A stretch of 64,000 bases of DNA from a virus (Duplodnaviria; Caudoviricetes), in IMG/VR virus record IMGVR_UViG_3300035498_000956; one strand, written 5' to 3'. Under the pieces are notes generated by a model. That model did not search any database. It saw nothing but the letters and a program-made list of their open reading frames with translations, and was not told the origin of the DNA. This document shows positions 3,797 through 43,197 of the stretch, in pieces (position 1 is the first letter of the stretch; each line of letters opens with the position of its first letter). The translations under genes were made by a program, and so were the position numbers.

Positions 3797-4120
3797 GTGG
3801 AAGAGAAATTATTAAAATTAATTGCAAAATGTGATGTTATTGATTTTTGCGGCTTATTAAAAATTCTTTGTATTAATCAAGTGGATGAAAATGGTGAGGA
3901 TATAGATTTCTATGCTTTACTTGAACTTGCTCTTGATAAATTCAATGGACTAAAACGTAAGCAAAAGAAACAAATCCTTAAGCTAATGGAGGATGTTGTT
4001 AAAGAAAATCAAAAGCCAAAAGAAAAAGAATCTGATCTCGCGGCGGTGATTAATAGAGGTGATGATGGATGCGTAGATGCATCAAGTGTGAAAAAGAATA
4101 CGGACCCTCAGGATTCATAA
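3797..4120 (+). CDS. Hypothetical protein
   Basis: GAGGTG RBS, GTG start abutting the upstream stop. Confidence 0.6.
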   Translation: MEEKLLKLIAKCDVIDFCGLLKILCINQVDENGEDIDFYALLELALDKFNGLKRKQKKQILKLMEDVVKENQKPKEKESDLAAVINRGDDGCVDASSVKKNTDPQDS

Positions 4121-4992
4121 GTGTTAATAGTCAATTTTTTAATGGACAACTTCCGATTTGTCGCTATTGTTTAACTTCAATGTTATCTGCGGCTGAAGAA
4201 TTGGATCGTTGGAATTTAATGGATAAGATTTGTCAATGGGCTAATATTCCCTTTATACCCGAAAAATGGGATGAGATGTATCAAGCTGATGGTGTTGAGG
4301 CTATTGGTCCATATTTTGCGATCTTTAGAAATAAAGAATATGAAAGATTAAATTGGTCTGAGTATAATGAGGTCTATAAAGAGTTAGCAGAAAAAGATAA
4401 GCTGTCTGCGGCGCTACCTCGTTATCAAGATCAACAGTTACTTGAACTCCAAGCAAAGTGGGGCTTAAACTATGATGAAGAGGAATTAGAATATTTGGAA
4501 AATCTCCATAGAGGATTACTGGCATCACAAAGTGTTGTCGGCGCGCTTCAAGAAGACCAAGCATTAAAAATTTGTAAAATCTCTCTTTCTATTGATGAAA
4601 AGATTAGGGATGGAATTGAATTTGATAAGGATTTAAAGTCCTATGATAATTTGGTTAAGACTGCTAATTTTACGCCGAAAACTTCAAAGAATGGTGATGA
4701 TTTCGATTCTGTTGGTGAGATTTTTGCTTATCTTGAAAAGACTGGTTGGATTAATAAATATTATGACGGCGCGGTCAGAGATGAAGTTGATAATACAATG
4801 AAGAATATTCAGAATTGGTGTAGACGCTTGTATACTAATGAAAGTGGTATTGGTGAAGAGATTACGGAAAGAATCCAAAATTTAAGACTTGCTAATCAAG
4901 AAGCTAATTATGATGAAAAAGATTTTGATGATTTTGATTTGAAATTTGATAGGGAATTGAATGAGGAATTTGAGGTGGATTTGAATGAGTAA
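4069..4992 (+). CDS. Putative terminase small subunit with N-terminal zinc finger
   Basis: CxxC...CxxC N-terminus, acidic C-terminus, overlaps the terL start. Function assigned from synteny only. Confidence 0.5.
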   Translation: MRRCIKCEKEYGPSGFISVNSQFFNGQLPICRYCLTSMLSAAEELDRWNLMDKICQWANIPFIPEKWDEMYQADGVEAIGPYFAIFRNKEYERLNWSEYNEVYKELAEKDKLSAALPRYQDQQLLELQAKWGLNYDEEELEYLENLHRGLLASQSVVGALQEDQALKICKISLSIDEKIRDGIEFDKDLKSYDNLVKTANFTPKTSKNGDDFDSVGEIFAYLEKTGWINKYYDGAVRDEVDNTMKNIQNWCRRLYTNESGIGEEITERIQNLRLANQEANYDEKDFDDFDLKFDRELNEEFEVDLNE

Positions 4993-5235
4993 TATTTTAA
5001 CACCAAGAGAAATTGTAACGCAAAGCTTTGGACGTGTTTTTGGCTCATATGCTGAAAAACATTTTAGAAATGGAATTGAATTAGAGAAAGGAGCAGTTTT
5101 AAATCAACAGAGAATTGAACAGAATAGGGATTTATATGAGAAATATTGTAATTTATGGAGTGTTTATCCTGATTTGTTTTTGGATTTGATTAAGCCTGTT
5201 GGTTCTCAATTTAATTTATATTTTTATCAGAGGAT
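4985..5235 (+). CDS. terL: Terminase large subunit, exon 1 of 3 (spliced: 4985-5235 + 5538-5593 + 6756-8236, 595 aa)
   Basis: Ends LYFYQR-AT (adenine-binding Q motif); the last U pairs with the IGS G in P1 (GGAU/GUCC). Confidence 0.85.
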
Positions 5236-5537
5236 TAAAAAGAGTCCCCTTATATAGTGATATATAAGTAAACAGATGGTTAATTGCTGGGAAGCCCTAA
5301 AGCTTAAATGCCTTAATGGAACGAAAGTAGAAACAAGTTTTAAGATGGAATATGGTGAGAGCCTAAGTTCTAGAACAATGGGTGATCAGCAGCCGATAAG
5401 GTTCAACGACTATTAGAGTACTTCAAGCGAAGGAATAGCCATCTAACTTATTGAAGTTAAAGATATAGTCTCATCTCTTATGAAAGTAAGAGCAGTGAAT
5501 ACTGGTTTAAGAGTAGCGATCTTAAATAAAGATAATG
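5236..5537 (+). ncRNA. Group I intron terL-I1 (302 nt, no ORF)
   Basis: Core elements AATTGCTGGGAA, GATCAGCAG, GTTCAACGACTA, AAGATATAGTCT; U-G pair in P1; terminal G5537; removal restores the frame. Confidence 0.9.
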
Positions 5538-5593
5538 TTTTTTAAGAGCTTGTATGCGTTATCGTTATATAAACGTTACTGCACCAAGAGCGT
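5538..5593 (+). CDS. terL: Terminase large subunit, exon 2 (56-nt micro-exon encoding (I)FLRACMRYRYINVTAPRA(F))
   Basis: Joins exons 1 and 3 in frame and supplies the first half of the Walker A motif APRAFSKT. Confidence 0.85.
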
Positions 5594-6755
5594 TAAAATG
5601 GCGCTCATTAAAAAGCTTGAATTGCGGGGACATCCTGAGAGTTTTAATTACTAAACAATAATAGTAATGTTATTGCGGCGAGAGTAATTATCTCGGTATA
5701 GTAAAAAGATTAAAAATTGGACAATCCGCAGCTAAGACTCTTAATATATTTAAATAAGGAGAATTATATGATTAAAACAATTATGTTAAATGGAACAGAG
5801 AGCGCTTACACAATAAATGAAAATGGTGATGTGATTAATACAAAAACAAATAAGAAATTAAAAGGTAGCGTGTCTAGATCAGGCTATCATTACACAAGAT
5901 TATCGCAGGATGGAAAGAAATACCGATTTTTTACACACGTTTTAGTTGCTGAATATTTTTTAACAAAGCCTATAGGGGATAAATATGTTGTAAATCATAA
6001 AGATGGCAATAAAATGAATAATAATGTCCATAATTTAGAATATATAACTCAATCTGAAAATGTTAAACACGCACATAAATGTGGTTTAATTAAAAAACCT
6101 TCTGGTGAAAAAATAAACATAAAAGATCTCCAAAATGAAATATGGGTTTATATTGATGATTATCCAGATTATCAAGTTTCAAATTATGGCAGAGTTAAAA
6201 GTTTAAAATATAACAAAGAACGTATATTAAAACCGTCAACTGTTAATGGATATTATTTAATTACATTGTCAAAAAATAATAAGACTAAAAACTTTTTAGT
6301 TCATAGATTAGTATATTATTATTTTATTGATAAACAAATTGAAAATTTTATGATTGATCATATAGACAATAATCCTTTAAACAATTGTTATTCAAATCTT
6401 AGAAAGGTGACTGTGCAAGAAAATGTACAATATGCATTATATGAACAAGGTGCTTTCAAACATTTAAAAAATGTAATTGCTTATAAAAATGGTGAAATAA
6501 TAGGAGAGTATACTTCTTGTGCAGAAGCTGCACGAGCATTGTCTTGTGATTCTAGCGCCATTAGTAAAGTATGTAGAGGCCTCTATAAACATACACATGG
6601 GTATGTTTTTAAGTATAAAGAGTAAAGTTCAACGACTATAATCCCTAAAATCACTGGGTAGTGGGCTTAATAATAATATAGTCTTATCTTATAAGAAATT
6701 ATAAGAAGTTCATAAGAGAACTGCAATAATGTTGTGAATTATTGTGAAAATCATG
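5594..6755 (+). mobile_element. Group I intron terL-I2 carrying an HNH homing endonuclease
   Basis: P1 GAGCGU/GCGCUC; AATTGCGGGGA and AATCCGCAG before the ORF; GTTCAACGACTA and ATATAGTCT after it; terminal G6755. Confidence 0.9.
5768..6625 (+). CDS. Intron-encoded HNH homing endonuclease (two NUMOD4/HNH units plus a NUMOD1-like tail)
   Basis: VNHKDGNKMNNNVHNLE and IDHIDNNPLNNCYSNL; YQVSNYGRVKS; AAGGAG RBS places the start at 5768. Confidence 0.9.
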   Translation: MIKTIMLNGTESAYTINENGDVINTKTNKKLKGSVSRSGYHYTRLSQDGKKYRFFTHVLVAEYFLTKPIGDKYVVNHKDGNKMNNNVHNLEYITQSENVKHAHKCGLIKKPSGEKINIKDLQNEIWVYIDDYPDYQVSNYGRVKSLKYNKERILKPSTVNGYYLITLSKNNKTKNFLVHRLVYYYFIDKQIENFMIDHIDNNPLNNCYSNLRKVTVQENVQYALYEQGAFKHLKNVIAYKNGEIIGEYTSCAEAARALSCDSSAISKVCRGLYKHTHGYVFKYKE

Positions 6756-8236
6756 TTAGTAAAACATTCATATCAATTTTGGCAATGCTATTGATGTGTA
6801 TTTTTAAGCCTGGAGTTAAATTATTTATTTGTGCACCGAAGAAGGAACAATCAGCAAAGGTGGCTAGAGAGAAGATCACCGAAATTCTTGATTTATTTCC
6901 TATTCTTGAAAAAGAAATTGTAACAAAAAACTTTGGTGGCGATTACATCAGAATTTCAACAAGAAATGGTTCTATTTTTGATGTATGTGCAGCGATAGAT
7001 AGTACTCGTGGCGGCAGAAGGAATGCGGGTCTTATTGATGAGTTTAGGGATCACAATGGTGATGATTTAAACAACATTGTGCTTCCTTTAATGAATGTCA
7101 ATAGAAGAATGAAAAATGGTGCAGTAAATCCATATGAACCTCAACAATGTCAGATGTGGATGTCATCTGCTGGGGATAAAAATTCATATGGTTATAATAA
7201 GGTAGTGGAGCATATGGAACAAATGATAGTCAATCCGAAATCCACTTTCATTTTTGGCTGTGACTATAAGATACCAATGATGCATGGATTACTACCTGAA
7301 AATTATTTAAATGAAATTAAAAATTCGGCAACGTTTAAAGAAGAATCGTTTGCAAAAGAATATATGGGTATCTGGTGTGGAGCAACATCAGAAGCCTGGT
7401 TTGAATATGATAAATTTAACCGACATAGATTGCTTTGTAATCCAGAAACATCTGAAAAAACTAGAGATGATATTGAGTCATTCTACATTATTTCAGTGGA
7501 TATCGCCCGTTTGCAGTGCCAAACAGTGGCAACCATATTAAAAGTCTTTCCAAGAACAGATAATTACTATGTAAATGTAGTAAATCTTTTTGTTCTGGGA
7601 AAAACTGATCAAGCTAAAGTTTTTGATAAGCAAGCTTTAGAGCTTAAACGTTTAATTAAATTATATAATCCAAAAGAAGTTGTTATAGATATAAACGGCC
7701 TTGGCGTGGGTCTAGGCGATGAAATGATTAAAGAAACATATGATAATGAAAAAGGAGAGTTCTATCCTGCATATGGTTTCTTTAATAATGATGACTACAA
7801 GAAGGTCCAACCTAAAAATGCTATCAACATACTCTATGGAATTAAAGCAAATGGCCCTCTCAATAGCAAAATGCATGGTAATTGTTATTCAATGATTTAT
7901 GGCGGCCAAGTTAAGTTTTTAATTTCTGAACAAGAAGCTAAAACAAAACTATTAGCCACAAGAAAAGGTCAAAAAATGACGATTGAAGAGAGAACTAAAC
8001 GTTTAATGCCACACCAATTAACATCGATAATGATTGATGAAATGATGAATTTAAAATTAAAACCAACTGGAGTTTCTGGTGAAATTGTCCTTGAACAAAT
8101 TAATAAGAGAATGACAAAGGATAAGTTCAGTTCCCTAGAAATGGGCTTACACCGTGTTAAGGAACTCTATGAGGAACACGCAAAACGTTTCCGTAAAAAA
8201 GGAAGCGGTAAACAATTAGTATTTTTTAAAACATAA
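6756..8236 (+). CDS. terL: Terminase large subunit, exon 3 (ATPase and nuclease domains)
   Basis: SKTF Walker A end, GLIDE Walker B, MSSA motif III, ISVDIAR and KDKFSS nuclease motifs. Confidence 0.9.
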
Positions 8237-30128: not shown

Positions 30129-31664
30129 ATGGCAACTACACAAACAATAGCCTTTAAAGGCACGTTCGATGCATCCGAAATAATCTCCTCTCTAAAGAAA
30201 ATCCGTTCTCAAATGGAATCTCAGGGAGCAGATACAAAACTTTTTGGAAATGTCGATACACAAATTAAAGCAATTGAAAAACAAGCTGAACAATTAGCAA
30301 AAAAAGCTAAGGAAGGTTTCAGTAATACAAAAGATATGGAGAATTATAATAAAGACGTTGCAAAACTTAATTCTCTATATGAACGTACTGCTCAAGACCT
30401 AGAAAAAATTAGTCAAAAAGTAGAATACACAGCACCAGAAGAATATATTCAAAAAGTTAAAGATGCTCAAAAAGCTTTACAAAGTTTAAAAGACGAAATT
30501 AAATCAACTCAACAACTTCAAAATCAACAGATAGTAACAAAATTTACTAGTGAAGGCGTTGGAGAAGATAGAGCAAAACAACTAGCTGAAAGTATTAGTG
30601 ACCAAGAAAAATTCAATAGTCTATTAGAAGAAGAACGTCAAACTCGTCAAGAAATCTATGACTTAGAAACAAAAGAAGCTGAAGAAGCCGCAGCAAAGAA
30701 TGCAATTGAAACTAAAACAGTTGACTTAAGCTCATCAAACTATAAAGTTAGTAAACAAAGAACTAGTACAAACCTTCCAAGTTTAACTGGTAATACAGAA
30801 GAGGGTGCACAATCTGACTGGAAGGCAAGAAAAGACAACCAACGACACGTCGATTATTCAACTTTTAATGATAGAGCAAATAGTGAAGCAACTCAACTTT
30901 ATCAACAAGCTTTATCAGATGTTACAAGTGGAGCGAAAGAAACTCAAACTGCAATTCAAGATTTGATTAATACTTTTTCTAGCTATGGCGCAATTATAGA
31001 AAATCAAGAAGAGTTTACTCAACAGTTTGTTGCAGATTTACAAGATGTACAACAAGCGGCTGAAAATGCAAGTACGAATGTTGAACACACTTTTGATACT
31101 TCAACAAGTGCAAATGGTATTAATTATGCCGCTGAAGGATCGACTGAAGCTGCTGACCTTGAAACGTATAGACAACAAGAAGCAGCACTTGCCACTGTTA
31201 ATCAAAGATTGAGTGAACAAGCAGCTGCAGAAGCAAATGTACAGGCGGCAGAACAAGCAAGAGATCAAGCAGCGTCTGAAGCTAATGAGACAATAACGAC
31301 TGGATTAGAGAATGGCGTTACAAGTATGAATGAGTATACCACAGCTGTTCAAAAATCTGTTGAGCAACAAAAAGAGGAATCTGCAGCTCAAGAAAAAATT
31401 AATGCCGCTTTTGATAATTTAAAAAATAGAGTTACTCAAATCTTGTCCATTGGTAACGCTTGGAATCAAGTTAAACAACAAATTCAAGCAACGACTCAAG
31501 ACTTAGCAGAATTGGATGCTAGTTTTGCTTCTATAGCAATGGTTACTGATTATGATGTTAGCGATATGTGGAGTAGCTATGGTGACTATGCTGCAATGGC
31601 TAATGAACTTGGTCAATCTACTAAAGACGTAATAGCATCGAGTGCACTTTTCTACCAACAAGGG
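30129..31664 (+). CDS. Tape measure protein, exon 1 of 4 (spliced: 30129-31664 + 32909-33192 + 33479-33508 + 34410-40818, 2752 aa)
   Basis: Ala/Gln/Glu coiled coil leading into a TP901-type TMP core ending LFYQQG. Confidence 0.85.
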
Positions 31665-31691
31665 AAACCTAGATTATAAAAATGGATAGTA

Positions 31692-31720
31692 TTGACTATT
31701 TTTGTATCCTATGATATAAT
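31692..31720 (+). promoter_or_regulatory. Intron-internal sigmaA promoter for the HNH gene
   Basis: TTGACT, 17 bp, TG-a-TATAAT. Confidence 0.8.
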
Positions 31721-31784
31721 ATATACATACTAAGAAAGAGATCTTAGTATAAAATATAAAATAATATATCGGAGGAATTAAATT

Positions 31785-32588
31785 ATGAGTGAAACAAAAA
31801 GAATTATGATTGATGGACAGGAAACAGACTATACAATTAATACAGAAGGCATAGTTATAAATCTTAAAACCAAGAGAGAATTAAAAGGAACTCTAGCGAG
31901 AAATGAATATCGTAATGTACAACTTACTATTAATGGTAAAGCAAAAAGCGTGATGGTACATCGTTTAGTAGCAGAAACTTTCATACCAAATCCTAATAAT
32001 TATTCAATGGTAAGCCATATTGATGGTAATAAGTATAATAATAATGTTGATAATCTTCAATGGTGTGAAGAACCAATAAAAAAGAATAAAATTAATGCAG
32101 TGACTAAAGTTAGTGTTGATAATGTAGAATGGAGACCTCTTAAAGGATTTGAAGGTATATATGAAATTTCTAATAATGGTGTTATAAAAAATTGTGTAAC
32201 TAAAAAATTATCTTATGGCACAAAGCGTAATGGATATGTCCGTTTTAATTTACAAGACAAAATGTTTTCTGCACATAGATTAGTTTGGGAAACTTTTAAA
32301 GGTGAAATTCCTAAAGATTATGTAATTGATCATATAGATGGTAATCGTTCAAATAATGATTTGAGCAATTTAAGATGTATTACTAATTCAGAAAATATGA
32401 TAAATGCTCAAAAGAATGGTCATAAAGGTCAGCATAAAGTTGCTCAATATGACAAAAACCATAATTTAATAAAAGAATGGCCAAGTTTTACTACCGCCGC
32501 AAAAGAATATGGTGTCACTTATGCTGCTATTAGTAGTGCAGCTAAGCGACATGGAATGAGTTGCGGATTTTATTGGGAAGAAATATAA
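31785..32588 (+). CDS. Intron-encoded HNH homing endonuclease (tandem NUMOD4/HNH)
   Basis: VHRLVAETF...SHIDGNKYNNNVDNL and IDHIDGNRSNNDLSNL; GGAGG RBS. Confidence 0.9.
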   Translation: MSETKRIMIDGQETDYTINTEGIVINLKTKRELKGTLARNEYRNVQLTINGKAKSVMVHRLVAETFIPNPNNYSMVSHIDGNKYNNNVDNLQWCEEPIKKNKINAVTKVSVDNVEWRPLKGFEGIYEISNNGVIKNCVTKKLSYGTKRNGYVRFNLQDKMFSAHRLVWETFKGEIPKDYVIDHIDGNRSNNDLSNLRCITNSENMINAQKNGHKGQHKVAQYDKNHNLIKEWPSFTTAAKEYGVTYAAISSAAKRHGMSCGFYWEEI

Positions 32589-32908
32589 TTCTTCCCTACC
32601 AACCCTTGAAAATCATTGGATTGCTGGAAGGTCCTTAAATCTTTATTACCAAACGAAATTAGTAATAATTTCGCGGCTGATTGTAGATAAGGTATGGTGA
32701 TAATATAAAGATTTGGAAAATCAGCAGCTAAGTTTCCTATTGATTTTAGGAAAAAAGTTCAACGACTAACAGTCGGTCAAGGACTGTGTAGGATCAAGTG
32801 ATCCGAAGTAGTGATACCTTTATGGTTTGATATAGTCTCAACTTCTATAGAGATATAGAGTAGTATAAACTAGTTTAAAAAGTAACGTTTTTAAAAATAA
32901 GAAAATTG

Positions 32909-33192
32909 TTGGATACAAATGAAGCGTTAAGTTTGACAACCAATACCATGAAATTGGCTACTTTATCTGGTAGTGATTTTAGTACAGCAACAGAACAAAT
33001 GACAGCGGCACTTCGTGGATTTAATATGGAAATGGATGAAGGCTCAAGAGTAACAGACGTTTATTCATCTCTAGCTGCAAGCGCAGCGGCAGACGTTGAT
33101 GGTATAGCATACGCTATGAGTAAAACAGCGTCAATTGCTGCGAATGCAGGTATGGACTTTGAAACTACGTCTGCTTTTATTACTCAAATGAT
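32909..33192 (+). CDS. Tape measure protein, exon 2
   Basis: LDTNEAL...MTAALRGFNME...AMSKTASIA...TQM-AT, TP901-type core. Confidence 0.85.
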
Positions 33193-33478
33193 TAACGTGA
33201 CTTAAGTCACAAAAGTCCCTTATAATAGTAATATTATATTGAACCGTGAATATGCGGGAAAGCCCTTAGAGCTTTACTTACTAAGTATTTTATAATATGG
33301 TGAGAGTAATGACCTCAGTATAGTAACAATAGTAAAGATTGGGTAATCCGCAGGGATTGGAATATTTAATTTCAAGCCCTCAACGACTACCAAGCGGTAT
33401 CCAAGTAATAATGGATAATGGTATAGTCTACTCCGACCTTATAGGTGTTAAAGTATCTTGAAAAAGACGGTAGAAAGG
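33193..33478 (+). ncRNA. Group I intron TMP-I2 (286 nt, no ORF)
   Basis: AATATGCGGGAA, AATCCGCAG, CTCAACGACTA, GGTATAGTCT; 5' exon ends in U; terminal G33478; restores MIETTQE. P1 is short, so the 5' boundary is less certain. Confidence 0.8.
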
Positions 33479-33508
33479 AGAAACAACTCAAGAAGCGCCT
33501 GAAAACAT
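33479..33508 (+). CDS. Tape measure protein, exon 3 (30-nt micro-exon encoding (I)ETTQEAPEN(I))
   Basis: Bridges exons 2 and 4 in frame to give TQMIETTQEAPENIGTAMKTIIARF. Confidence 0.8.
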
Positions 33509-34409
33509 CAAGTACGGTGTCCTTGCAGCATAATACATAAACTGCATTGAATAACTCTTTCTAATTGACTTGGACATCCAGCAGTGGATAACAGGGCGGA
33601 AGCTCATCGAGATTGCTCGAATAAGCACCGTGAACGACTGAGTGAAAGAGGCCCATGTCAATGGGCGTGCGACAGTCTCAACTTTAGTATAACAAAAAGA
33701 AGCTAAAGGCACTATATGTGCAGAATTATAAATTTAATAAGTTTAATATTTAAAGGAGAATTAAATATGATTTATGAACGCAATTCAAATGTTTTTGAGA
33801 AGATTGATTCAGAAGAAAAAGCTTATTGGCTAGGTTTTTTATACGCTGACGGATATGTTGATCCAGAACGAGGTGAATTAATTCTAGGATTGGCAGACAA
33901 AGATAAAGAACATATAGTAAAATTTCAAAACTTTTTAGAAACAAATGCACCATATAAAGATAAAATTAATAATCAAAATAAACCTTATCGTTTTTTTAGG
34001 TTATATGATCAAAAAATCTGTTTAGATTTAGAAAAACAAGGTTTATACAGAAAAAAATCGTTAACTTTAACACCTCAAATGCAAATGTCAAATGAGTTAT
34101 TAATTCATTGGAGCAGAGGATTATTTGATGGCGATGGTAGTATTTATCCACAAAAAAATAGTGTTAATTCAATTAGATATCGAATTAATTTGGTTGGAAC
34201 AGAAGATATATTAAATTATGTAATGAATTTATGGCAAATTAATAAGAAATTAGATAGAAATAGAAGTGTTCCAAAATTTGTAGTAAGTGGAAAACGAGAA
34301 GTAAATAAAATTTTACATATGTTATATGATGATGCTTCTATCTATTTAGATAGAAAATATCAATTGGCGAAAAAAGCTATAGAGCAAAATTTATAATTTG
34401 AAGATATTG
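33509..34409 (+). mobile_element. Group I intron TMP-I3 with a LAGLIDADG gene in its 3' (P9) region
   Basis: P1 ACAU/GUGU; P3 CTCTTTC/GAAAGAG; P7 GACTG/CAGTC; terminal G34409. Confidence 0.85.
33767..34396 (+). CDS. Intron-encoded LAGLIDADG homing endonuclease (two motifs)
   Basis: YWLGFLYADG and WSRGLFDGDG; AAGGAG RBS gives start 33767. Confidence 0.9.
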   Translation: MIYERNSNVFEKIDSEEKAYWLGFLYADGYVDPERGELILGLADKDKEHIVKFQNFLETNAPYKDKINNQNKPYRFFRLYDQKICLDLEKQGLYRKKSLTLTPQMQMSNELLIHWSRGLFDGDGSIYPQKNSVNSIRYRINLVGTEDILNYVMNLWQINKKLDRNRSVPKFVVSGKREVNKILHMLYDDASIYLDRKYQLAKKAIEQNL

Positions 34410-37400
34410 CGGTACAGCAATGAAAACCATCATTGCAAGATTTACAGAATTAAAAGAAAATGTATCTGCAGCAGATAGTGAATTTGATGATCTTGATTAT
34501 AATGATGTAGATACAGCATTAAAGTCTGTTGGTATTTCAATTAAAGATGCTAGTGGTCAATTTAGAGATCTAGATGATGTCTTTCTTGAATTGGCAGAAA
34601 AATGGGATACACTTGATAGAAATACTCAACGTTATATCGCAACTACCGCGGCGGGTAGTAGGCAACAGTCGAGATTTATTGCAATGATGAGTGATTATGA
34701 TAGAACACTTGAATTACAAGCAACAGCTTATGAGTCAACTGGACAATCAACTGTACAATTTAATAAATATCAAGATACTGTTCAATATAAAATTGAACAA
34801 ATTCAAAATACTTGGGAGCAATTAAGAGTTTCGTTATTGGATCAGGATGTTTATAAAGATGCTTTAGATTTAGGTAATAAATTATTAAGTGGGATTAAAA
34901 AAGATATTAGTATAAAAGATTTGGCATTTATTGCTGTAATCGGCTTAACAGTTGGTAAAAACTTTGTTTCTCAATTTATTAATGGCATGAAAACAAATAT
35001 TGGAACTGTAGCAGATGTTTTTAACAAACAGGTTACTCCTGCATTTAAAACAGCTGCAAGTACAGCTGGTAATTCTATTAATACAGGAATAGCGACAGTT
35101 TTAAGCAAAAGTAAGATAGGAACAAAAGTTAGTAGTTTAATTTTTTCTGATAATGCAAAAAAACAATTAGAGCAAAATCTTCAACAAGCAACAAGCGCAT
35201 TTAATCAACAAATGGAAAAAATTAATACTCAATTTTTAGAATTAACTAATAGACAAAAGAATCTTTTTTCTTTAGCTGATCAGCCTATTTCTGCTCAAGC
35301 ATTAACTGATTTTTATACTAAATTACAACAAGTTGGTTCTGTTACGGAATTAACAGAAACAGAAGTAAATGAATTATATAAAAAAATGGGTGGAACTGAA
35401 GAACTTACTGCTGGCACTGCAGCATATGATCAGTTCGTTGCAAAATTACAACAAATGGGAGTAGTTCTTCAGCAAGATATAACTAATGAGGAAAATACGA
35501 CTACAGCTTTACGACAATATATTCAAGCAGTCAGAGAAGGGTCAGCATCTAGTCAACAATTACAGCAAGCAACTCAAAATTTAAGTAATTCTTTTGGTGC
35601 TCTTGGTCCAGTAGTTAATAGTGCAGCAAGTGCAATAAAAGGTGCATTTAAATCTTCAATAGGATCTGCAATTACTAGTGGAATTATTACTGCTATTTCT
35701 ACAGGAGATTTTTCAACTGCTTTAAAGACAACTGGTTTAACTTTAGTAACAGGCATGATTTCTCAATTAGTTCCTCAATTTATATCTTTTTTAGGAAAGC
35801 AACTCGCCGCGTTTATCCCTACACTTATTCCTATATTATCAAATCCAGCCGCTCTAGCTGCTATAGCAATAGGAACAGTTGTAGTTGTTGGCTTAGGTGC
35901 ACTAATTTATAATTATTATAAGAAAAACAATGTATGGACTTCTTTATCTGAGAGCTTAGATGCAGAGATTTCAACTATGAAAAAAAATCTTGAAGATTTA
36001 AAAGAAGCTGCCGAAACTACTACATCTACAGCAAAAGCAGATCAACAAGCAGTTTCAACAATGGAGAGTGTAAAAAAAGAATGGGATGAATTAAATAATA
36101 AAATTAGTTTAACTGAGGATGAACAAGAAAGATACAATGAGTTAGTTGAAACAATAAATGATGAATATTCAGATACAGTTGCATATTATGATGAAATGAA
36201 TAATAAATTAATTATTAGTGAAGATTTGTGGAATCAGCAATTAGAAGATGCAAAAGAAATTGCGGAATTATCTCAAGCAATAGCTCTTGGCACTCAGAGT
36301 AATGTAAATGCAGAAGAATATGAACTTGAAAAAACAAAAAATCAAAAAGCTAAACTTCAATTAGAAGGCGGTTTTTATACTAAGACTAATGAGAATGGAG
36401 ATACTACATACACTACAGATATTTATGAGACAGGTACTTCTGCTGATTTTTCAGCTTTACAAGATGTTATCAATCAAGGATTAACAGATTATGATAGTAT
36501 TAGTCAAGCAATAAATGATAATTATTCGACCGCCATTGCCTCAGGTCGTATAGCAGCAGATGATAATAAAGCTGATGAAATTAATCAAATGTTAAAATTA
36601 TTTGACGATTATTATAAAGAGCATGGTACACAAGGAGAAGTTGATCTTTCTTATGTGCTGCAACAAATTTTAGATAATAATCAAGATGCGTTAGAATTTT
36701 ATCAACAAATATTAGACGAGCAAGAGGGAATTGATGACATTATTAATGAAGCAGATGAAGCGTCTAACCAACGATATATAGAATCACAACGTCAAAATTA
36801 TCAAAGTAATATTACTGCAACAGTAGGAGCAACGCAAGCTAGTATGGTAACAAATACTGATGCAGCTGATGAGCTTATTGAATTACAACGTTTATTACTT
36901 GAAGATGATCAAGAGGCAATAGAAAAAACTAGTCAATATATTAATGAAGAATTTAAATCATTAACCAATTTAGATCCAGCAGCACTCTCTGAAGGCTCAG
37001 ATTTTATGTCATCATTAATAAATGCAGAAGATTTTTCGAGTGCGGCCGAAGCTGTAAACTTATCCGAAGAAACATTATCAGCAATCACAGGCTTAACTGC
37101 AGATACATTTGTTAACATGAGAGGAGATGCAGAACATTTAGCAAAACTTATTAGAGATAATACATTTACTCAGTATATTGAAAATGATATGCAAACTGCA
37201 GCAGAAGAAATTCCAGAGCAATTAGTTGATAGCTTTGCTGAAGTAAGTGAAAATATAAGCACAATGTCTCTTGATGAATACCAGCAAAGTATTCAAAAGT
37301 TAGAAGGTCAATATGGAGATGCTTATAAAGACAATATTGAATCTGCAGCTACTGTTGATTATGAACAATATGCAAATATGTTTTTAACACAGAATGAAGG

Positions 37401-40400
37401 CGGACAAATTACTGGAGGATTTTTCTCTAATCTATTTACGTCAGAAGATGCAGCAACTGCTTTTACTGATGCAATAAAAAATGGAGATTTTGAAGCTGCT
37501 GGAGATGCTCTTAGAGATCAAGGCCAGGGTATGTGGGCGGATCTTTTTACTCAAATTGATCCTACAACTATCTCAACAATGTCCAATTTTATTGCTAATA
37601 ATGTTACTGGAGATGAAGCTCAAGCACAAGCCAAAGAAAAACTTCAAACAATGTTGACTAATATATTAAATGACGAGGATAGTGTATTATCAGAAAATGA
37701 ATTAGATTTGATATTAAATGCAAATGTTAACTGGGACGAAGTGAATCCTTTAAATGTAGAAGAAACAATGGAAGACTTGGCCGAACAGCTAATGACAGAT
37801 TCAAGTGGTGCTCTTAGTTTTAATGAAGCTTTAGAAAAAGTTAAATCAGTGTTTGGAGATATTAATGATTTAGTAGGTTCATTTGAATATGGATCAGCAA
37901 CTGCTTTTAATACATTAATCACATCAGCAAAAGAAGCAGGAGAAACAATGGTTACTCAAGCTGATACAATTACTTCAATAATGGATGAGATTGATACGTC
38001 TATTGGCTTAACTAGAGAACAATTAAACACTCTCGATGAAGCTGGATTAAGTGATGTGTATGAATTAGATATTGATACTGGTAAATTTGAAATTAAAATG
38101 GAGAAAGTGCAAAATCTATTTTCAGAAACAATTGCAACAAATGAAGAAGCATTGAAAAAAGAATTAGGAACTGAACAAGAACGTTTAAATACTGTAACAT
38201 CTCAAATTCAAGAATTAGATAATAAAATAGCAAATTATAAAAAATTAGGTATGGATACTACTGAATTAGAAGAAGAAAAAACTGAGTTACTAAAAGAACA
38301 ATCGACTTTAACAGATCAAATTGCAGAACGAACAGAAGAGGCAGAAAAAGAAATCTCATTAGAATTTCAAAATCAAGTTTCACTACTTGAAGCAATAAAA
38401 GAAACAATTCAAGAGGCACAAGATGCAGTAGATGAAGCGGAAAAAACTTTAAAAGAAAAACAAGAAGCATATGATGAAGCAAAAGAAGCAGCAGACAATG
38501 CAGCAGCAGTACGAGAAAAAGCTATTGCTGATGCATATGAAGAAGAAGCTAAAACGATTAAAGAAGCAGAAGAAGCTGCAGAGAGTGCTTTAAAATCATT
38601 ACAAGATGCGTATGATACTTTAGCAGATGCCCAAGAAAAACTTGCAGAAGCTCAAGAAGATTTATATGAAGCAATTCATGGTTCTGCTGATTGGGATAGC
38701 GGCCTTGAACGATTAGATTCAGCAAATCAAATGTTAACTGGATTAAATACTCGTTTAAAAACCTTAAAATCAAATATGGAAGATGCTTCAGATTTGGATA
38801 GTATGGTTTCTAGTACAGAAGCCTATATTGCGGCACAAAAAGAAAAAATGAATTTACTTGAAGCAGAAAAACAATCTACACAACAAAGTTTAGATAATAT
38901 GTTATCTGACCTTTATAGTAATGACGCATATGCCAATGTTCGTGATTCAGTTCAATTCACTGTTGATGGACGAATGATGCTTGACACCAGTGCTCTTGAA
39001 AATGCAGATGCAAGTGATGCTATTAAAGATGCATTAGTAAAATTACAAGCAGAATATAATAAAGAAGTAGACTCAATGGCAACTGCAACTGAAGAAATGG
39101 AAGCTCTTGAAGATGAATGGGAGAACTATTATACAACAGCATTAAAAAATTATATATCAACTCAAGATAAAGTAGTTAAAATTTTAAAAGAAAATGCTCA
39201 AGCAGAGATAGATGCAGTACAAGATAAATATGATAATTTAAAAGAGGCAGATGATGATTATATCAGTGCTCTACAGGATGCAATTCAGAAACAACGTGAT
39301 TTAAGAGATCAAGCAAGTCAATATGAAGAATTAGCAACAAAAGAAAAGAAATTATCTTTAATGTCAAGAGATACCTCTGGAGCTAATCAAAAAGAAGTTG
39401 CAACACTTGAGGATGAAGTTGAAAACACTCGTCAATCATTACTTGATAAAGAAGTTGATAATTTAATTTCCTCTATGCAAGAAATGTATGAAACTCAACA
39501 AAAGGCAAGAGAAGAAGAAATTGAATATTTAAACGCTTTGATGGAAACTACTGATTGGTGGATTCAAGCTAATGAAATTATTCAGGGATGGACAGATTCT
39601 GCTGATGCTGTTGAATGGTTTATGAGCAATGATTCATCTGTTCAAGACATGAGTACTGAAGCTCAAGTTCAATATGCACAAGAAGCTGAAACTGATTATA
39701 CAAATGCTATTAGTCTTGAAGCTGTTCAACAAGTATTAGCTGATGTTGGAGGTAGCATTACAGATGCAATTCAAGCAGATGTGGATAGTGTTAATGAAAT
39801 ACTTACAACATTAAATATTAGTACTGAAGTAGGAAACCAAGTGCTAGAAGCTGGTGTAGTTGCTAGAGATGAGGCTATAGAAACAGCTCAAACAGCTATT
39901 GAATCTGCACAAGAAACAGTTACTAATGCTGAAGAAAATTTAGTAAAAATGCAAACTGCTTATCAAGAAGCTTTGGATGACGTGACTACAAAAACACAAG
40001 AAGCTGCAGAAACTAGAGCACAAGCAGTTAAAGATGCTTATGATACAGAGTCGACTACTTTAGAAGCATTAACCACTGCAGAACAAGATTTGTCAACAGC
40101 TCAAGCAGATCTTGATACTGCTACTCAAAATTTAGATGAAGCATTGAAAGGATTAGGTACAGATGCTGCGACTGTAATATCTGGTATTGATGAACAAATT
40201 CGTCAATTACAGAACAATTGTGTGCAGTATATACAAGATTTAGAAAATCAAAGGATGTCCGAAGCTTCAGAACGATATTACGTTAGTGTTAATGGAAAAG
40301 ATGATTTGGAAAGCCTACATAGTTTAGAAGCTTCTGGTACTCCTCTTAGTAATGAAAACTGGTTTACTAGTGAGCAAGAGGCACAAGATTTTATCAATTC

Positions 40401-40818
40401 TAATGCACAGTATTTAAGTTCTCAAGGAAAAAATCTTTCTGTAAAACATTACGCATCAGGTGGTATGGTAGACTTTACTGGTCCAGCTTGGGTAGATGGT
40501 ACAAAATCAGAACCAGAAGCATTCTTAGACCCAGAAGATACAAGTAACATCGCAGCATTAGCTCAAGCACTACGTTCAATGAATCTTTCAACTCCACTAG
40601 TTAACCAAACAGAATCTCCTATATCCAACATTTCCTCAACTCTCAATAACGTAACCAATAACTCCAACACATCATATACAGGAGGAACTGTTAGTATCAA
40701 TCTTAACATAGAATCAATTTCAAGTGATTACGATGTAGAATCAATGTTAGACTTAATGGAAGAACGTATTAACGAAGCATCTAATCCAATTGGATCTTCT
40801 GTTATCCTTCGTAAATAA
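34410..40818 (+). CDS. Tape measure protein, exon 4
   Basis: KTIIARF...AGSRQQSRF core, hydrophobic transmembrane block, long coiled coils, C-terminal YASGG...GPAWVDGT..PE motif. Confidence 0.9.
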
Positions 40819-40881: not shown

Positions 40882-43197
40882 ATGGCAGATTTCATTCATT
40901 TTCGTTTTGGAAACTACCATTCAAAAGATTTAAACTTAATCGTAACAAGCTCAAGCAATTTCTATTCTCAAGATTTATTACCATCAAATACTGATACAAC
41001 AACTGATATTAGCGGCAGTAATGGTAAGTATTATTTTGGCTCTATTTTTAGTACAAGAGAATTTACTTTAAATCTTGCGTTTGATAGTATTACCGAAGAT
41101 AATTTACGATTAATCTCTCAAATTTTTGGAAATGATAAACCACAAGATTTAGTTTTTGATGAACGTCCTTATAAAACTTATAAAGCAAAAATTAAATCTA
41201 AACCAACTTTTAAATATGTTTGCTTTTTAAATCAAGATGGAGAAAGAGTCTATAAAGGTACTGGCACACTCAATATGATTTGCTATTCTCCATTTGCTTA
41301 TTGTTTTAATAAATACATAGTAAGATCAGCAGATTATTACATTCATACTCCGCCAGAAAAAGCAATTAAAGAATGGTACAATACTGAAATTAATATTCAA
41401 CCATGGTACGGCGGCTATCCAACATATGATCAAGTGAAAAAAGGAGAACTCTATTTCAATACTCCTTCTGGTACTAGATCAATTATTGACGTAAGACGTT
41501 ATTGGGATAACATACCAGAATGGGCGCACAGCAGTAGATTATTAACTACTCCTACTCTTGATTATGATCAGGAATTAATGTATGCTCCTCAATGTTCAAA
41601 GGTTGGATATTTAAATTTAGATAAAGGCTTTGATAAAACAATAGACACAAATTTATTAACCAATCGCCTTTTTGTATATAATCCTGGTGATTTACCTATT
41701 GATTTTGAATTAAATTTCAACAATCCTGGCCTATCTACATTTTTTCAAAAACATAAAGATGCAAATGGGCATAAACGTTTTAGAATTAGGCGTTTAAATG
41801 TTCAGCGTTTAGGTCTAGCAGATGCAGTTAATTGGTGTGGATTGACAACTCAAGATTTAAATGATAATGTGACTTATAAATATGATAATAAGTATTTTAA
41901 ACGTGTTGGAGATATAGATGGAAGCAGTATTGACAGATTGGTTAGTAATAATGAAATTAAATCTTTGTCTGTTGATGATTTACAAGATACAGTTGCGGAA
42001 ATGTTATCTGGACATGAATCTTTTGATGATTTAGGACCTTGTCATCCTAAACATTGTTATATGATTGAACCAATTCCAAGAGAAAAATTAGGAGATTATA
42101 TTAGAACTTTTTGTTATCAAACCGCAAAATCTAATACAGGTTTTACTAATCAATTAAATGAATTATCAGCCGCGGCGGATCGATATGAAGAATTGTATGA
42201 TTTGTGTATAACAGAACAAGAAAAATTTCAGTTATATTGGGAAACTTTAATTAATACCGTACTTAAATTCTATGGCAATACTAGCTTTTTTAAGAGTAGC
42301 ACTCAACAATCAATGTACACTAACTATACTATTGATAGTTTCATTAATGATTATCTATTTGATCCACCAGAATATTTAGTTGATTCAGAGGATGCTGCAT
42401 ATGGTCAATTTATTTTTAATTATAATAATCTTCCTCAATACTACACTGGAGATTATCTTGAAATTGATATAACCGATTTGTCAATAGATGAAGGAGGAAA
42501 TGCTTCAGACCTACCAGAGCAACTAATACTTGACACGGAAAACAGAATGTTGTATAATATAATAGAAGATAATACCAATACTTATTATGGTACAAAATCT
42601 AAAAACATTCTCAATGATTATATAACTAAAGGTCACTGGTTTCAACTACCTCCTGGCTGGAGCGTAATTGAAATTATTCCAGTATTAGATCAAGATATTA
42701 CAGATGATAAAACATGGAAAGCTGCACGAGAGTATTATTGGGGTTATAATAACAATAGTACAGAATATGATGCAGATCTTATGCGCGCGTACTATAATTG
42801 CGTATATGATTTAGCAAAAGATAATTTTCTTACTTATGCAAAATGGAATTTAGGATTAACATCTAATGATTATTCTAATCAAGAATTAATTCGTCACTGG
42901 TTAGCTGGATGGGAGGAATATAATGAAAAGAATGAAGATAATAAAAATTTTGTAGAATCATTATATACACAAAAGCTCCATAGTTTAGAAGTTCAATTCC
43001 TAAAAACGATTCAATCCTATTGGTCAATGTTAACTGGTCAATCAACAGGAAAAGGTGACAATAAACTTTCTGGTACAATCAGTGAATGGTTTCAATATGC
43101 AGAAAACTATATTTGGGAATTATTCCCACCTACATATTGGGGATATAATCAATTTTTAGACGGCGCAACAATTAAATATACACCATTATATTATTAA
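40882..43197 (+). CDS. Distal tail protein (Dit) with large insertions
   Basis: Follows TMP; N-terminal G.YYFG...REF...LVFDERPYKTY.AK...CYSPFA; NPGDLP; C-terminal YTPLYY. Confidence 0.7.
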   Translation: MADFIHFRFGNYHSKDLNLIVTSSSNFYSQDLLPSNTDTTTDISGSNGKYYFGSIFSTREFTLNLAFDSITEDNLRLISQIFGNDKPQDLVFDERPYKTYKAKIKSKPTFKYVCFLNQDGERVYKGTGTLNMICYSPFAYCFNKYIVRSADYYIHTPPEKAIKEWYNTEINIQPWYGGYPTYDQVKKGELYFNTPSGTRSIIDVRRYWDNIPEWAHSSRLLTTPTLDYDQELMYAPQCSKVGYLNLDKGFDKTIDTNLLTNRLFVYNPGDLPIDFELNFNNPGLSTFFQKHKDANGHKRFRIRRLNVQRLGLADAVNWCGLTTQDLNDNVTYKYDNKYFKRVGDIDGSSIDRLVSNNEIKSLSVDDLQDTVAEMLSGHESFDDLGPCHPKHCYMIEPIPREKLGDYIRTFCYQTAKSNTGFTNQLNELSAAADRYEELYDLCITEQEKFQLYWETLINTVLKFYGNTSFFKSSTQQSMYTNYTIDSFINDYLFDPPEYLVDSEDAAYGQFIFNYNNLPQYYTGDYLEIDITDLSIDEGGNASDLPEQLILDTENRMLYNIIEDNTNTYYGTKSKNILNDYITKGHWFQLPPGWSVIEIIPVLDQDITDDKTWKAAREYYWGYNNNSTEYDADLMRAYYNCVYDLAKDNFLTYAKWNLGLTSNDYSNQELIRHWLAGWEEYNEKNEDNKNFVESLYTQKLHSLEVQFLKTIQSYWSMLTGQSTGKGDNKLSGTISEWFQYAENYIWELFPPTYWGYNQFLDGATIKYTPLYY

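Follow-up and report, generated by a model that had tools for sequence, protein, structure and literature searches.

Group I introns inside the gene of a phage tape measure protein (TMP) have been described from prophages of the Bacillus cereus group, as TMP-IVS1, IVS2 and IVS3a/b (Tourasse and Kolsto 2008, PMC2504315). These introns are of types IA1/IA2 and use three sites, with no more than two in one gene. Through the P1 helix similar introns have adapted to different sites, different introns share one site, and the targeting of conserved sequence was read as a strategy for spreading (PMC2504315). The locus described here lies in a stretch of 64,000 nucleotides (nt) from the IMG/VR virus record IMGVR_UViG_3300035498_000956 (Duplodnaviria; Caudoviricetes), referred to as the window. 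Judged from its sequence, it very probably holds a single TMP gene of the TP901/PhageMin_Tail type which group I introns have invaded at three places. The location of the introns inside the TMP gene is shared with the B. cereus-group prophages. The window differs from them in having three introns in one gene within 314 nt, a 30-nt exon included, in a TMP about twice as long, in one intron with a G-C pair at the 5' splice site, and in its lineage, an uncultured phage group with contigs of roughly 160-180 kb.

The tail tube gene orf142 of the Staphylococcus phage Twort is a second close parallel. As described in PMC10136302 and PMC11878797, it contains three group I introns and shows exon skipping, and its introns 2 and 3 are separated by an exon of 23 nt (Landthaler and Shub 1999). 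Both loci are thus phage tail structural genes with three group I introns and a micro-exon, of 23 and 30 nt, respectively. The gene that hosts the introns is a different one, and introns 2 and 3 of Twort are closely related to each other whereas those of the window come from different sequence families. Splicing was demonstrated experimentally in Twort and is predicted in the window. A 34-nt exon between two group I introns is also known from the 23S rRNA of Coxiella (PMC10136302, PMC11878797).

Phages of the Bastillevirinae have two or three group I introns per gene, with HNH, NUMOD4 and occasionally LAGLIDADG cargo (Weglewska et al. 2025, PMC11878797). Some of these introns splice only in vivo, and exon skipping is known for one polymerase gene (PMC11878797). 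Several introns per gene and the same three kinds of cargo are also found in the window. The Bastillevirinae introns, however, lie in DNA polymerase, terminase and nucleotide-metabolism genes and those of the window in a TMP gene. Weglewska et al. (PMC11878797) ask why only such genes have been colonised, and the TMP cases answer this in part. An earlier interpretation of the window, made without database searches and called here the sequence-only reading, had stated that phage group I introns are best documented in nucleotide metabolism, replication, terminase and lysin genes. This was incomplete, as TMP introns have been described since 2008 (PMC2504315) and the three introns and 23-nt exon of Twort orf142 since 1999 (PMC10136302, PMC11878797). 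The layout of the window is therefore not new and is an ordinary case of the known arrangement of TMP introns. Its value lies mainly in annotation, and beyond that in the unusual G-C pair of intron 1.

The tape measure gene and its exons

The region contains three long open reading frames (ORFs) on the + strand (30129-31679, 32906-33205 and 34420-40818), with two more between them (31785-32588 and 33716-34396). Removal of the three intervals given as introns in Table 1 joins the four exons into one frame of 8259 nt, which encodes 2752 amino acids (aa), contains no frameshift or internal stop and has its sole stop at the end. Over the junctions, marked by slashes, the product reads LFYQQG/LDT and TQMI/ETTQEAPENI/GTAMKTIIARF. 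Exons 2 and 3 together amount to 314 nt.

Comparison with relatives supports this reconstruction. A homologue search with the start of exon 4 as query returned 3725 relatives, the best 120 of which were inspected. Among these 120, 101 are intronless proteins of 2400-2709 aa carrying PF10145, and the other 19 are about 1900-2090 aa long and start at residue 615-627 of the joined TMP. Residues 440-700 of the joined product align with the 101 full-length intronless homologues at 63-83 % identity with 0-1 gaps. The single gap falls downstream of all the junctions, and the alignment is gapless over all three. A purpose-written protein-to-DNA spliced aligner, which allows introns in any phase and gives a bonus solely for a terminal G, was supplied with the intronless homologue P0007 and returned exactly the three intron intervals of Table 1. 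It also recovered the micro-exon, the peptide of which, (I)ETTQEAPEN(I), is identical in most of the aligned intronless homologues. Matches of the exon 4 translation to phage TMPs in tblastn begin at residue 1. The open frame of 2752 aa, the unannotated 30-nt exon and three junctions within about 315 nt of coding sequence, all put forward in the sequence-only reading, were thereby borne out, and the colinear alignment to intronless TMPs that it had named as a check was obtained.

Exon 2 alone matches Pfam PhageMin_Tail (PF10145; 8.2e-17), and since the match covers only profile positions 30-127 of 201, the domain is interrupted by inserts at both ends. The assignment to the TMP family further agrees with the great length of the protein and its place between tail tube genes and the gene of a distal tail protein: a Sipho_tail gene (Pfam) follows at 40882-43197, and YomU_Tube genes lie upstream of the TMP gene in relatives. 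No close relative was found when the region was compared by megablast with 50,697 phage records. Relatives were binned with gut-type Bacillota and other metagenome-assembled genomes.

Gene callers give three or four separate ORFs here, as would also be expected if the gene were a decayed pseudogene or if several small proteins were encoded separately, with the inserts left unspliced. We consider such an explanation hardly credible. Neither exon 2 nor the 30-nt exon has a start codon context of its own. Across the junctions conserved peptides are restored exactly and in frame, and the ribozyme folds of the inserts covary. We also rejected an intein, a group II intron and a plain pseudogene, given the in-frame stops, the presence of a group I core and the exactly restored junctions.

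Interruption by introns has consequences for annotation. The 2752-aa TMP is split by gene callers into three ORFs and the 30-nt exon is missed entirely, so databases will give incorrect TMP lengths, and hence incorrect predicted tail lengths, throughout this phage group. Psychrobacillus phage Perkons, whose homologous TMP has 2439 aa, has a tail of 380.6 ± 16 nm, i.e. 0.156 nm per residue. At this ratio 2752 aa correspond to about 430 nm, and at 0.15 nm per residue to 413 nm. The full-length TMP should thus set a tail of roughly 410-430 nm, and the figure of roughly 400 nm in the sequence-only reading was reasonable.

Table 1. Coordinates of the TMP gene, its introns and associated features in the window
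Feature	Coordinates	Strand	Description and evidence
TMP exon 1	30129..31664	+	512 codons, ends TTC TAC CAA CAA GGG; gapless to homologues up to FYQQG
Intron 1, group I	31665..32908	+	1244 nt, phase 0, ends in G; homologue alignment and spliced aligner
Promoter-like site	31692..31720	+	TTGACT-17-TATAAT, 11/12 match, with TG; consensus match only; within intron 1, ahead of the HNH gene
HNH homing endonuclease ORF (intron 1)	31785..32588	+	Pfam HNH_3 9.4e-29 (two matches), NUMOD4 6.8e-14
Intron 1 catalytic core	32585..32860	+	P3-P9, P7.1/P7.2-like hairpins; R element GTTCAACGACTAAC, S element GATATAGTCTC
Intron 1 internal guide sequence	32599..32608	+	CCAA/CCCTTG, exact reverse complement of CAAGGG/TTGG (P1 and P10)
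TMP exon 2	32909..33192	+	284 nt, LDTNEA...FITQM and AT; PhageMin_Tail match, homologue alignment
Intron 2, group I	33193..33478	+	286 nt, ORF-less, phase 2 (AT/A), preceded by U, ends in G
TMP micro-exon	33479..33508	+	30 nt: A GAA ACA ACT CAA GAA GCG CCT GAA AAC AT
Intron 3 core	33505..33690	+	Hand-built P1-P8 fold, pseudoknot from P3/P7 crossing, typical of group I
Intron 3, divergent group I	33509..34409	+	901 nt, phase 2 (AT/C), preceded by U, ends in G
LAGLIDADG homing endonuclease gene (intron 3)	33767..34396	+	209 aa from ATG with AAAGGAG ribosome-binding site; Pfam LAGLIDADG_3 6.3e-8
TMP exon 4	34410..40818	+	6409 nt, starts C GGT ACA GCA ATG = (I)GTAM...; homologue alignment

Intron cores and cargo

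Five other contigs (L005, L125, L126, L127 and L128) have a homologue of intron 1 at this codon boundary. On a stretch of about 330 nt the core of intron 1 scores 51.3 bits (E 2.1e-12) with the Rfam model RF00028, for which the gathering score is 50. The RNAalifold consensus of five cores (those of the window, L005, L126, L127 and L128) has 81 pairs, 35 of them with changes on both sides, which span P4, P5, P6/P6a, P7, the two P7.1/P7.2-like hairpins between P7 and P3', P8 and P9.

Intron 2 matches RF00028 over its full length at 33198-33450 (41 bits, E 2.6e-9). L005 has an ORF-less intron of 69 % identity at this site, and compensatory changes are seen in the 5' hairpin, P3, P8 and P9. The minimum free energy fold of intron 2 pairs GAU/U with AGUC, which places a U·G pair at the splice site. 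An alternative P1 of UGAU with GUCA was dropped, as GUCAC is part of a hairpin for which L005 shows covariation.

Copies of intron 3 with 87 % identity are found at the same site in L030 and L031. Its hand-built fold consists of P1 (ACAU with GUGU), P2 (UGCAG with CUGCA), P3 (CUCUUUC with GAAAGAG), P4 (CUUG with CAGG), P5 (AUCCA with UGGAU), P6 (GCGG with CCGU), P6a (UCGAG with CUCGA), P7 (GACUG with CAGUC) and P8 (GCCCAU with AUGGGC). The fold was assessed on an alignment of three sequences, namely the window, the L030 copy and a more distant copy in L036 found via the LAGLIDADG protein. In this alignment 97.8 % of the cells are paired and 12 pairs have changed on both sides, compared to 34-44 % paired in controls in which the 3' partners were slid by 1-3 columns.

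A conserved group I core (P3-P9 with the P/Q/R/S elements, the guanosine-binding helix P7 and the P3/P7 pseudoknot) is supported for all three introns. Each has a terminal G (32908, 33478 and 34409), and in each an in-frame stop follows the 5' splice site, after 4 codons in introns 1 and 2 and after 8 codons in intron 3. The U·G pair at the 5' splice site is present in intron 2 and in intron 3 (ACAU with GUGU); P10 is weak or unclear in both.

Several observations weigh against the interpretation of all three inserts as group I introns. The score of intron 2 is under the Rfam gathering score and its P1 has just 3-4 pairs. Intron 3 gave no Rfam match even on a stretch of about 330 nt, and its fold was built on three sequences. 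Intron 1 has G-C in place of the near-universal U·G and may splice poorly or not at all. A scan of the whole window with Rfam at gathering thresholds found no group I match, and neither did the E-value mode on 3.3 kb: RF00028 detects introns 1 and 2 only on stretches of about 330 nt and not in scans of 3.3 kb or 64 kb. Default use of Rfam on the whole window thus misses all three introns. The sequence-only reading had claimed a recognisable core and a terminal G for each intron, which holds through RF00028 for introns 1 and 2 and through the covarying hand-built fold for intron 3. It had also proposed a check against group I models, and this succeeded in part, for intron 1 and, below the gathering score, for intron 2, and gave no match for intron 3. 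An exact-pattern scan of IMG/VR with the R/S motif of intron 3 hit only two contigs, both of which had already been found.

The cargo is different in each intron (HNH, none and LAGLIDADG), as had been noted from the sequence. Introns 1 and 3 have ORFs with apparently intact catalytic domains, identified by Pfam as HNH_3 with NUMOD4 and as LAGLIDADG_3, respectively, and intron 2 has no ORF of at least 100 aa. The LAGLIDADG ORF extends over 33716-34396, lies downstream of P9 and encodes two motifs, LGFLYADG and GLFDGDG; 206 relatives of the protein were found in metagenome contigs. An IMG/VR search based on the HNH protein yielded distant endonucleases only, and no introns of the intron 1 site (site A).

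From these features we infer both splicing and homing. Each intron would fold into a ribozyme after transcription. Free guanosine would attack the 5' splice site, held in P1 by the guide sequence of the intron, and the terminal G of the intron would then dock before the exons are joined. All three excisions would be required for a full-length TMP mRNA, and the in-frame stops 4-8 codons past the 5' splice sites would bar ribosomes from the ribozyme. The HNH enzyme of intron 1 and the double-motif LAGLIDADG enzyme of intron 3 would cleave intron-free alleles of the gene in co-infecting relatives, and their introns would spread in this way. Intron 2, having no endonuclease gene, is probably a passenger.

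The cleavage-site pair of intron 1

A U·G pair at the 5' splice site is near-universal in group I introns. In intron 1 the last base of exon 1 is a G, paired with a C of the guide sequence. No other 10-mer in the intron comes close to the guide as a complement of the ligated exons (10/10), and the guide pairs with both of them, in P1 and in P10. It covaries with the exon at positions -6, -4, -1 and +3 across L005, L126, L127 and L128. The exon end and guide are CAAGGG and CCCTTG in the window and L125, CAGGGT and GCTCTG in L005, L126 and L127, and TAGGGT and GCTCTA in L128; the cleavage-site pair is thus U·G in all four relatives (L005, L126, L127 and L128). The covariation at -6, -4 and -1 fixes the register of P1, and it shows that U·G was replaced by G-C at the cleavage site in the lineage of the window.

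Only one junction keeps both the terminal G and the QQGL frame, and it sets G, not U, last in exon 1. Two other placements were rejected. If exon 1 ended with the U at 31670 (FYQQGKP), the protein would gain residues found in no homologue and the site would lack a guide-sequence complement; a shift of both splice sites by one base would cost the intron its terminal G. L125, a contig of 97.5 % identity obtained from a different sample, shares the G-C pair, which excludes an assembly error, yet L125 does not count as an independent lineage.

In the group I intron of Anabaena a pyrimidine was required at the 5' splice site, and reversal of U·G to G·U abolished activity (PMC12355055). This mutagenesis, together with the G at the end of exon 1, the C opposite it and the U·G pair of same-site relatives, would fit a situation in which introns 2 and 3 splice while intron 1 is a ribozyme crippled by its G-C pair, with the result that the genome is defective or makes little full-length TMP. 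We regard this as unlikely. The change is compensated on both strands, and two further guide changes keep P1 fully paired, which points to selection for a working P1. The pair recurs in the second assembly, from the other sample, and there is no damage to the remaining core, the HNH gene or any part of the 2752-aa frame.

The compensation in P1 argues that intron 1 would splice well. That intron 1 is naturally functional with a Watson-Crick G-C cleavage pair, with a purine on the exon side, having come from a U·G ancestor by compensated changes, is in our estimate about evenly balanced with the contrary. Should intron 1 splice efficiently, the wobble would not be an absolute requirement for 5' splice-site selection in its family. 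The G-C pair is the only point of the locus with potential for new insight, and it would test the strictness of the U·G rule.

Upstream of intron 1, one 200-nt block of the window (31326-31525) is 79 % identical to L125 while other blocks are 95-100 % identical. This block starts 340 nt and ends 140 nt upstream of the intron 1 site, and could be a tract of recombination or co-conversion connected with homing.

Introns in relatives and the clustering of insertion sites

The layouts of relatives were obtained with runs of the spliced aligner. The TMP core has one intron in each of L003, L007 and L026, two in L027, five in L005 (with exons of 55, 22 and 36 nt) and nine in L029 and L032 (with exons of 9-21 nt). 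In L030 and L031 it includes an 8-nt exon adjoining the copy of intron 3 of the window. Further insertion sites are revealed by the C-termini of 84 ORFs of the exon 1 type. Altogether at least 14 insertion sites are used between residues 512 and 709, with up to nine introns per gene. With few exceptions the introns of the relatives have T as the preceding base and G as the last one. Of the 31 listed, about 25 have the canonical R and S elements, with a complementary P7. The TMP core is thus a hotspot of insertion, as the sequence-only reading had suggested for homing. No intron is found here in about 20 of 26 IMG/VR loci and in 101 of the best 120 homologues, and the TMP introns are therefore dispensable.

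The insertion sites coincide with a peak of conservation. Residues 451-750 show a mean identity of 0.50-0.74, compared with values mostly below 0.3 in the rest of the protein, in a profile for which the homologues had been picked with residues 618-1037. The clustering is best explained by selfish homing elements which accumulate on conserved target DNA, and not by regulation. This is a further case in which group I introns colonise structural genes besides those of DNA metabolism, and in which the conserved TMP core is a favoured landing pad.

The sequence-only reading had further proposed that the three introns form a post-transcriptional checkpoint, i.e. that rate-limiting or conditional splicing times or gates tail assembly. 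One essential late protein does depend on all three excisions, and exon skipping is known from Twort orf142 and from a Bastillevirinae polymerase gene. Both introns flanking the 30-nt exon are in phase 2, and skipping of this exon would therefore stay in frame; Twort-like skipping of the 30-nt exon is possible. A checkpoint nevertheless appears very improbable. About 100 of the 120 close homologues and about 20 of the 26 IMG/VR loci do without any intron here, and occupancy varies freely from 0 to 9 introns over at least 14 sites. The sites track DNA conservation and lie on its peak, where selfish homing elements are expected, and two of the introns carry homing endonucleases, all of which fits selfish spread. 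Of the earlier interpretation as a whole, the three group I introns, the 30-nt exon, the cargo, the hotspot and the tail estimate stand, and the checkpoint finds no support.

Some relatives deserve separate mention. In L029 (7337-14293) and L032 (4510-11466), IMG/VR contigs of 67 and 157 kb, nine introns are predicted in residues 547-709, separated in part by exons of 12, 17, 18, 9 and 21 nt. Canonical R/S elements are found in seven of the nine introns, and all nine follow T and end in G. The 8-nt exon GAAAACAT, at 9962-9969 in L030 and 2057-2064 in L031, lies between an intron at site 614 and the copy of intron 3 of the window, and is followed by an exon of 9-10 nt. The boundaries of the L005 intron at residue ~589 (4583-5958; cargo with a weak DUF723 match) are ambiguous, as CAATTG is repeated at both ends. 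They would give either G before the intron and a terminal G, or U before it and a terminal A; the L029 counterpart cleanly has U and G.

Weak or faint matches to DUF723 (PF05265) were obtained for ORFs of 308-361 aa at L005:4756-5841, L005:6976-7902 and L127:6177-7256. These ORFs occupy the usual position of homing endonucleases in group I introns and are candidates for an undescribed endonuclease family.

The contigs L007 and L128 translate to database proteins only when TAG is read as Gln, and a recoded stop codon is thus apparently used by some members of this phage group. The FYQQG motif of the TMP reads TTC TAT CAA TAG GGT in L128, where the guide sequence of the intron pairs with that TAG.

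Another gene upstream in the window also appears to be split by group I introns (5250-6730). The flanking ORFs, 4069-5257 and 6734-8236, gave no Pfam match. Canonical R/S pairs are present in the region at 5405/5466 and 6631/6679, the stretch 5608-5736 gives a P4-P6-like match with introns 1 and 2, and the ORF 5717-6625 has HNH, NUMOD4 and I-HmuI-like features.

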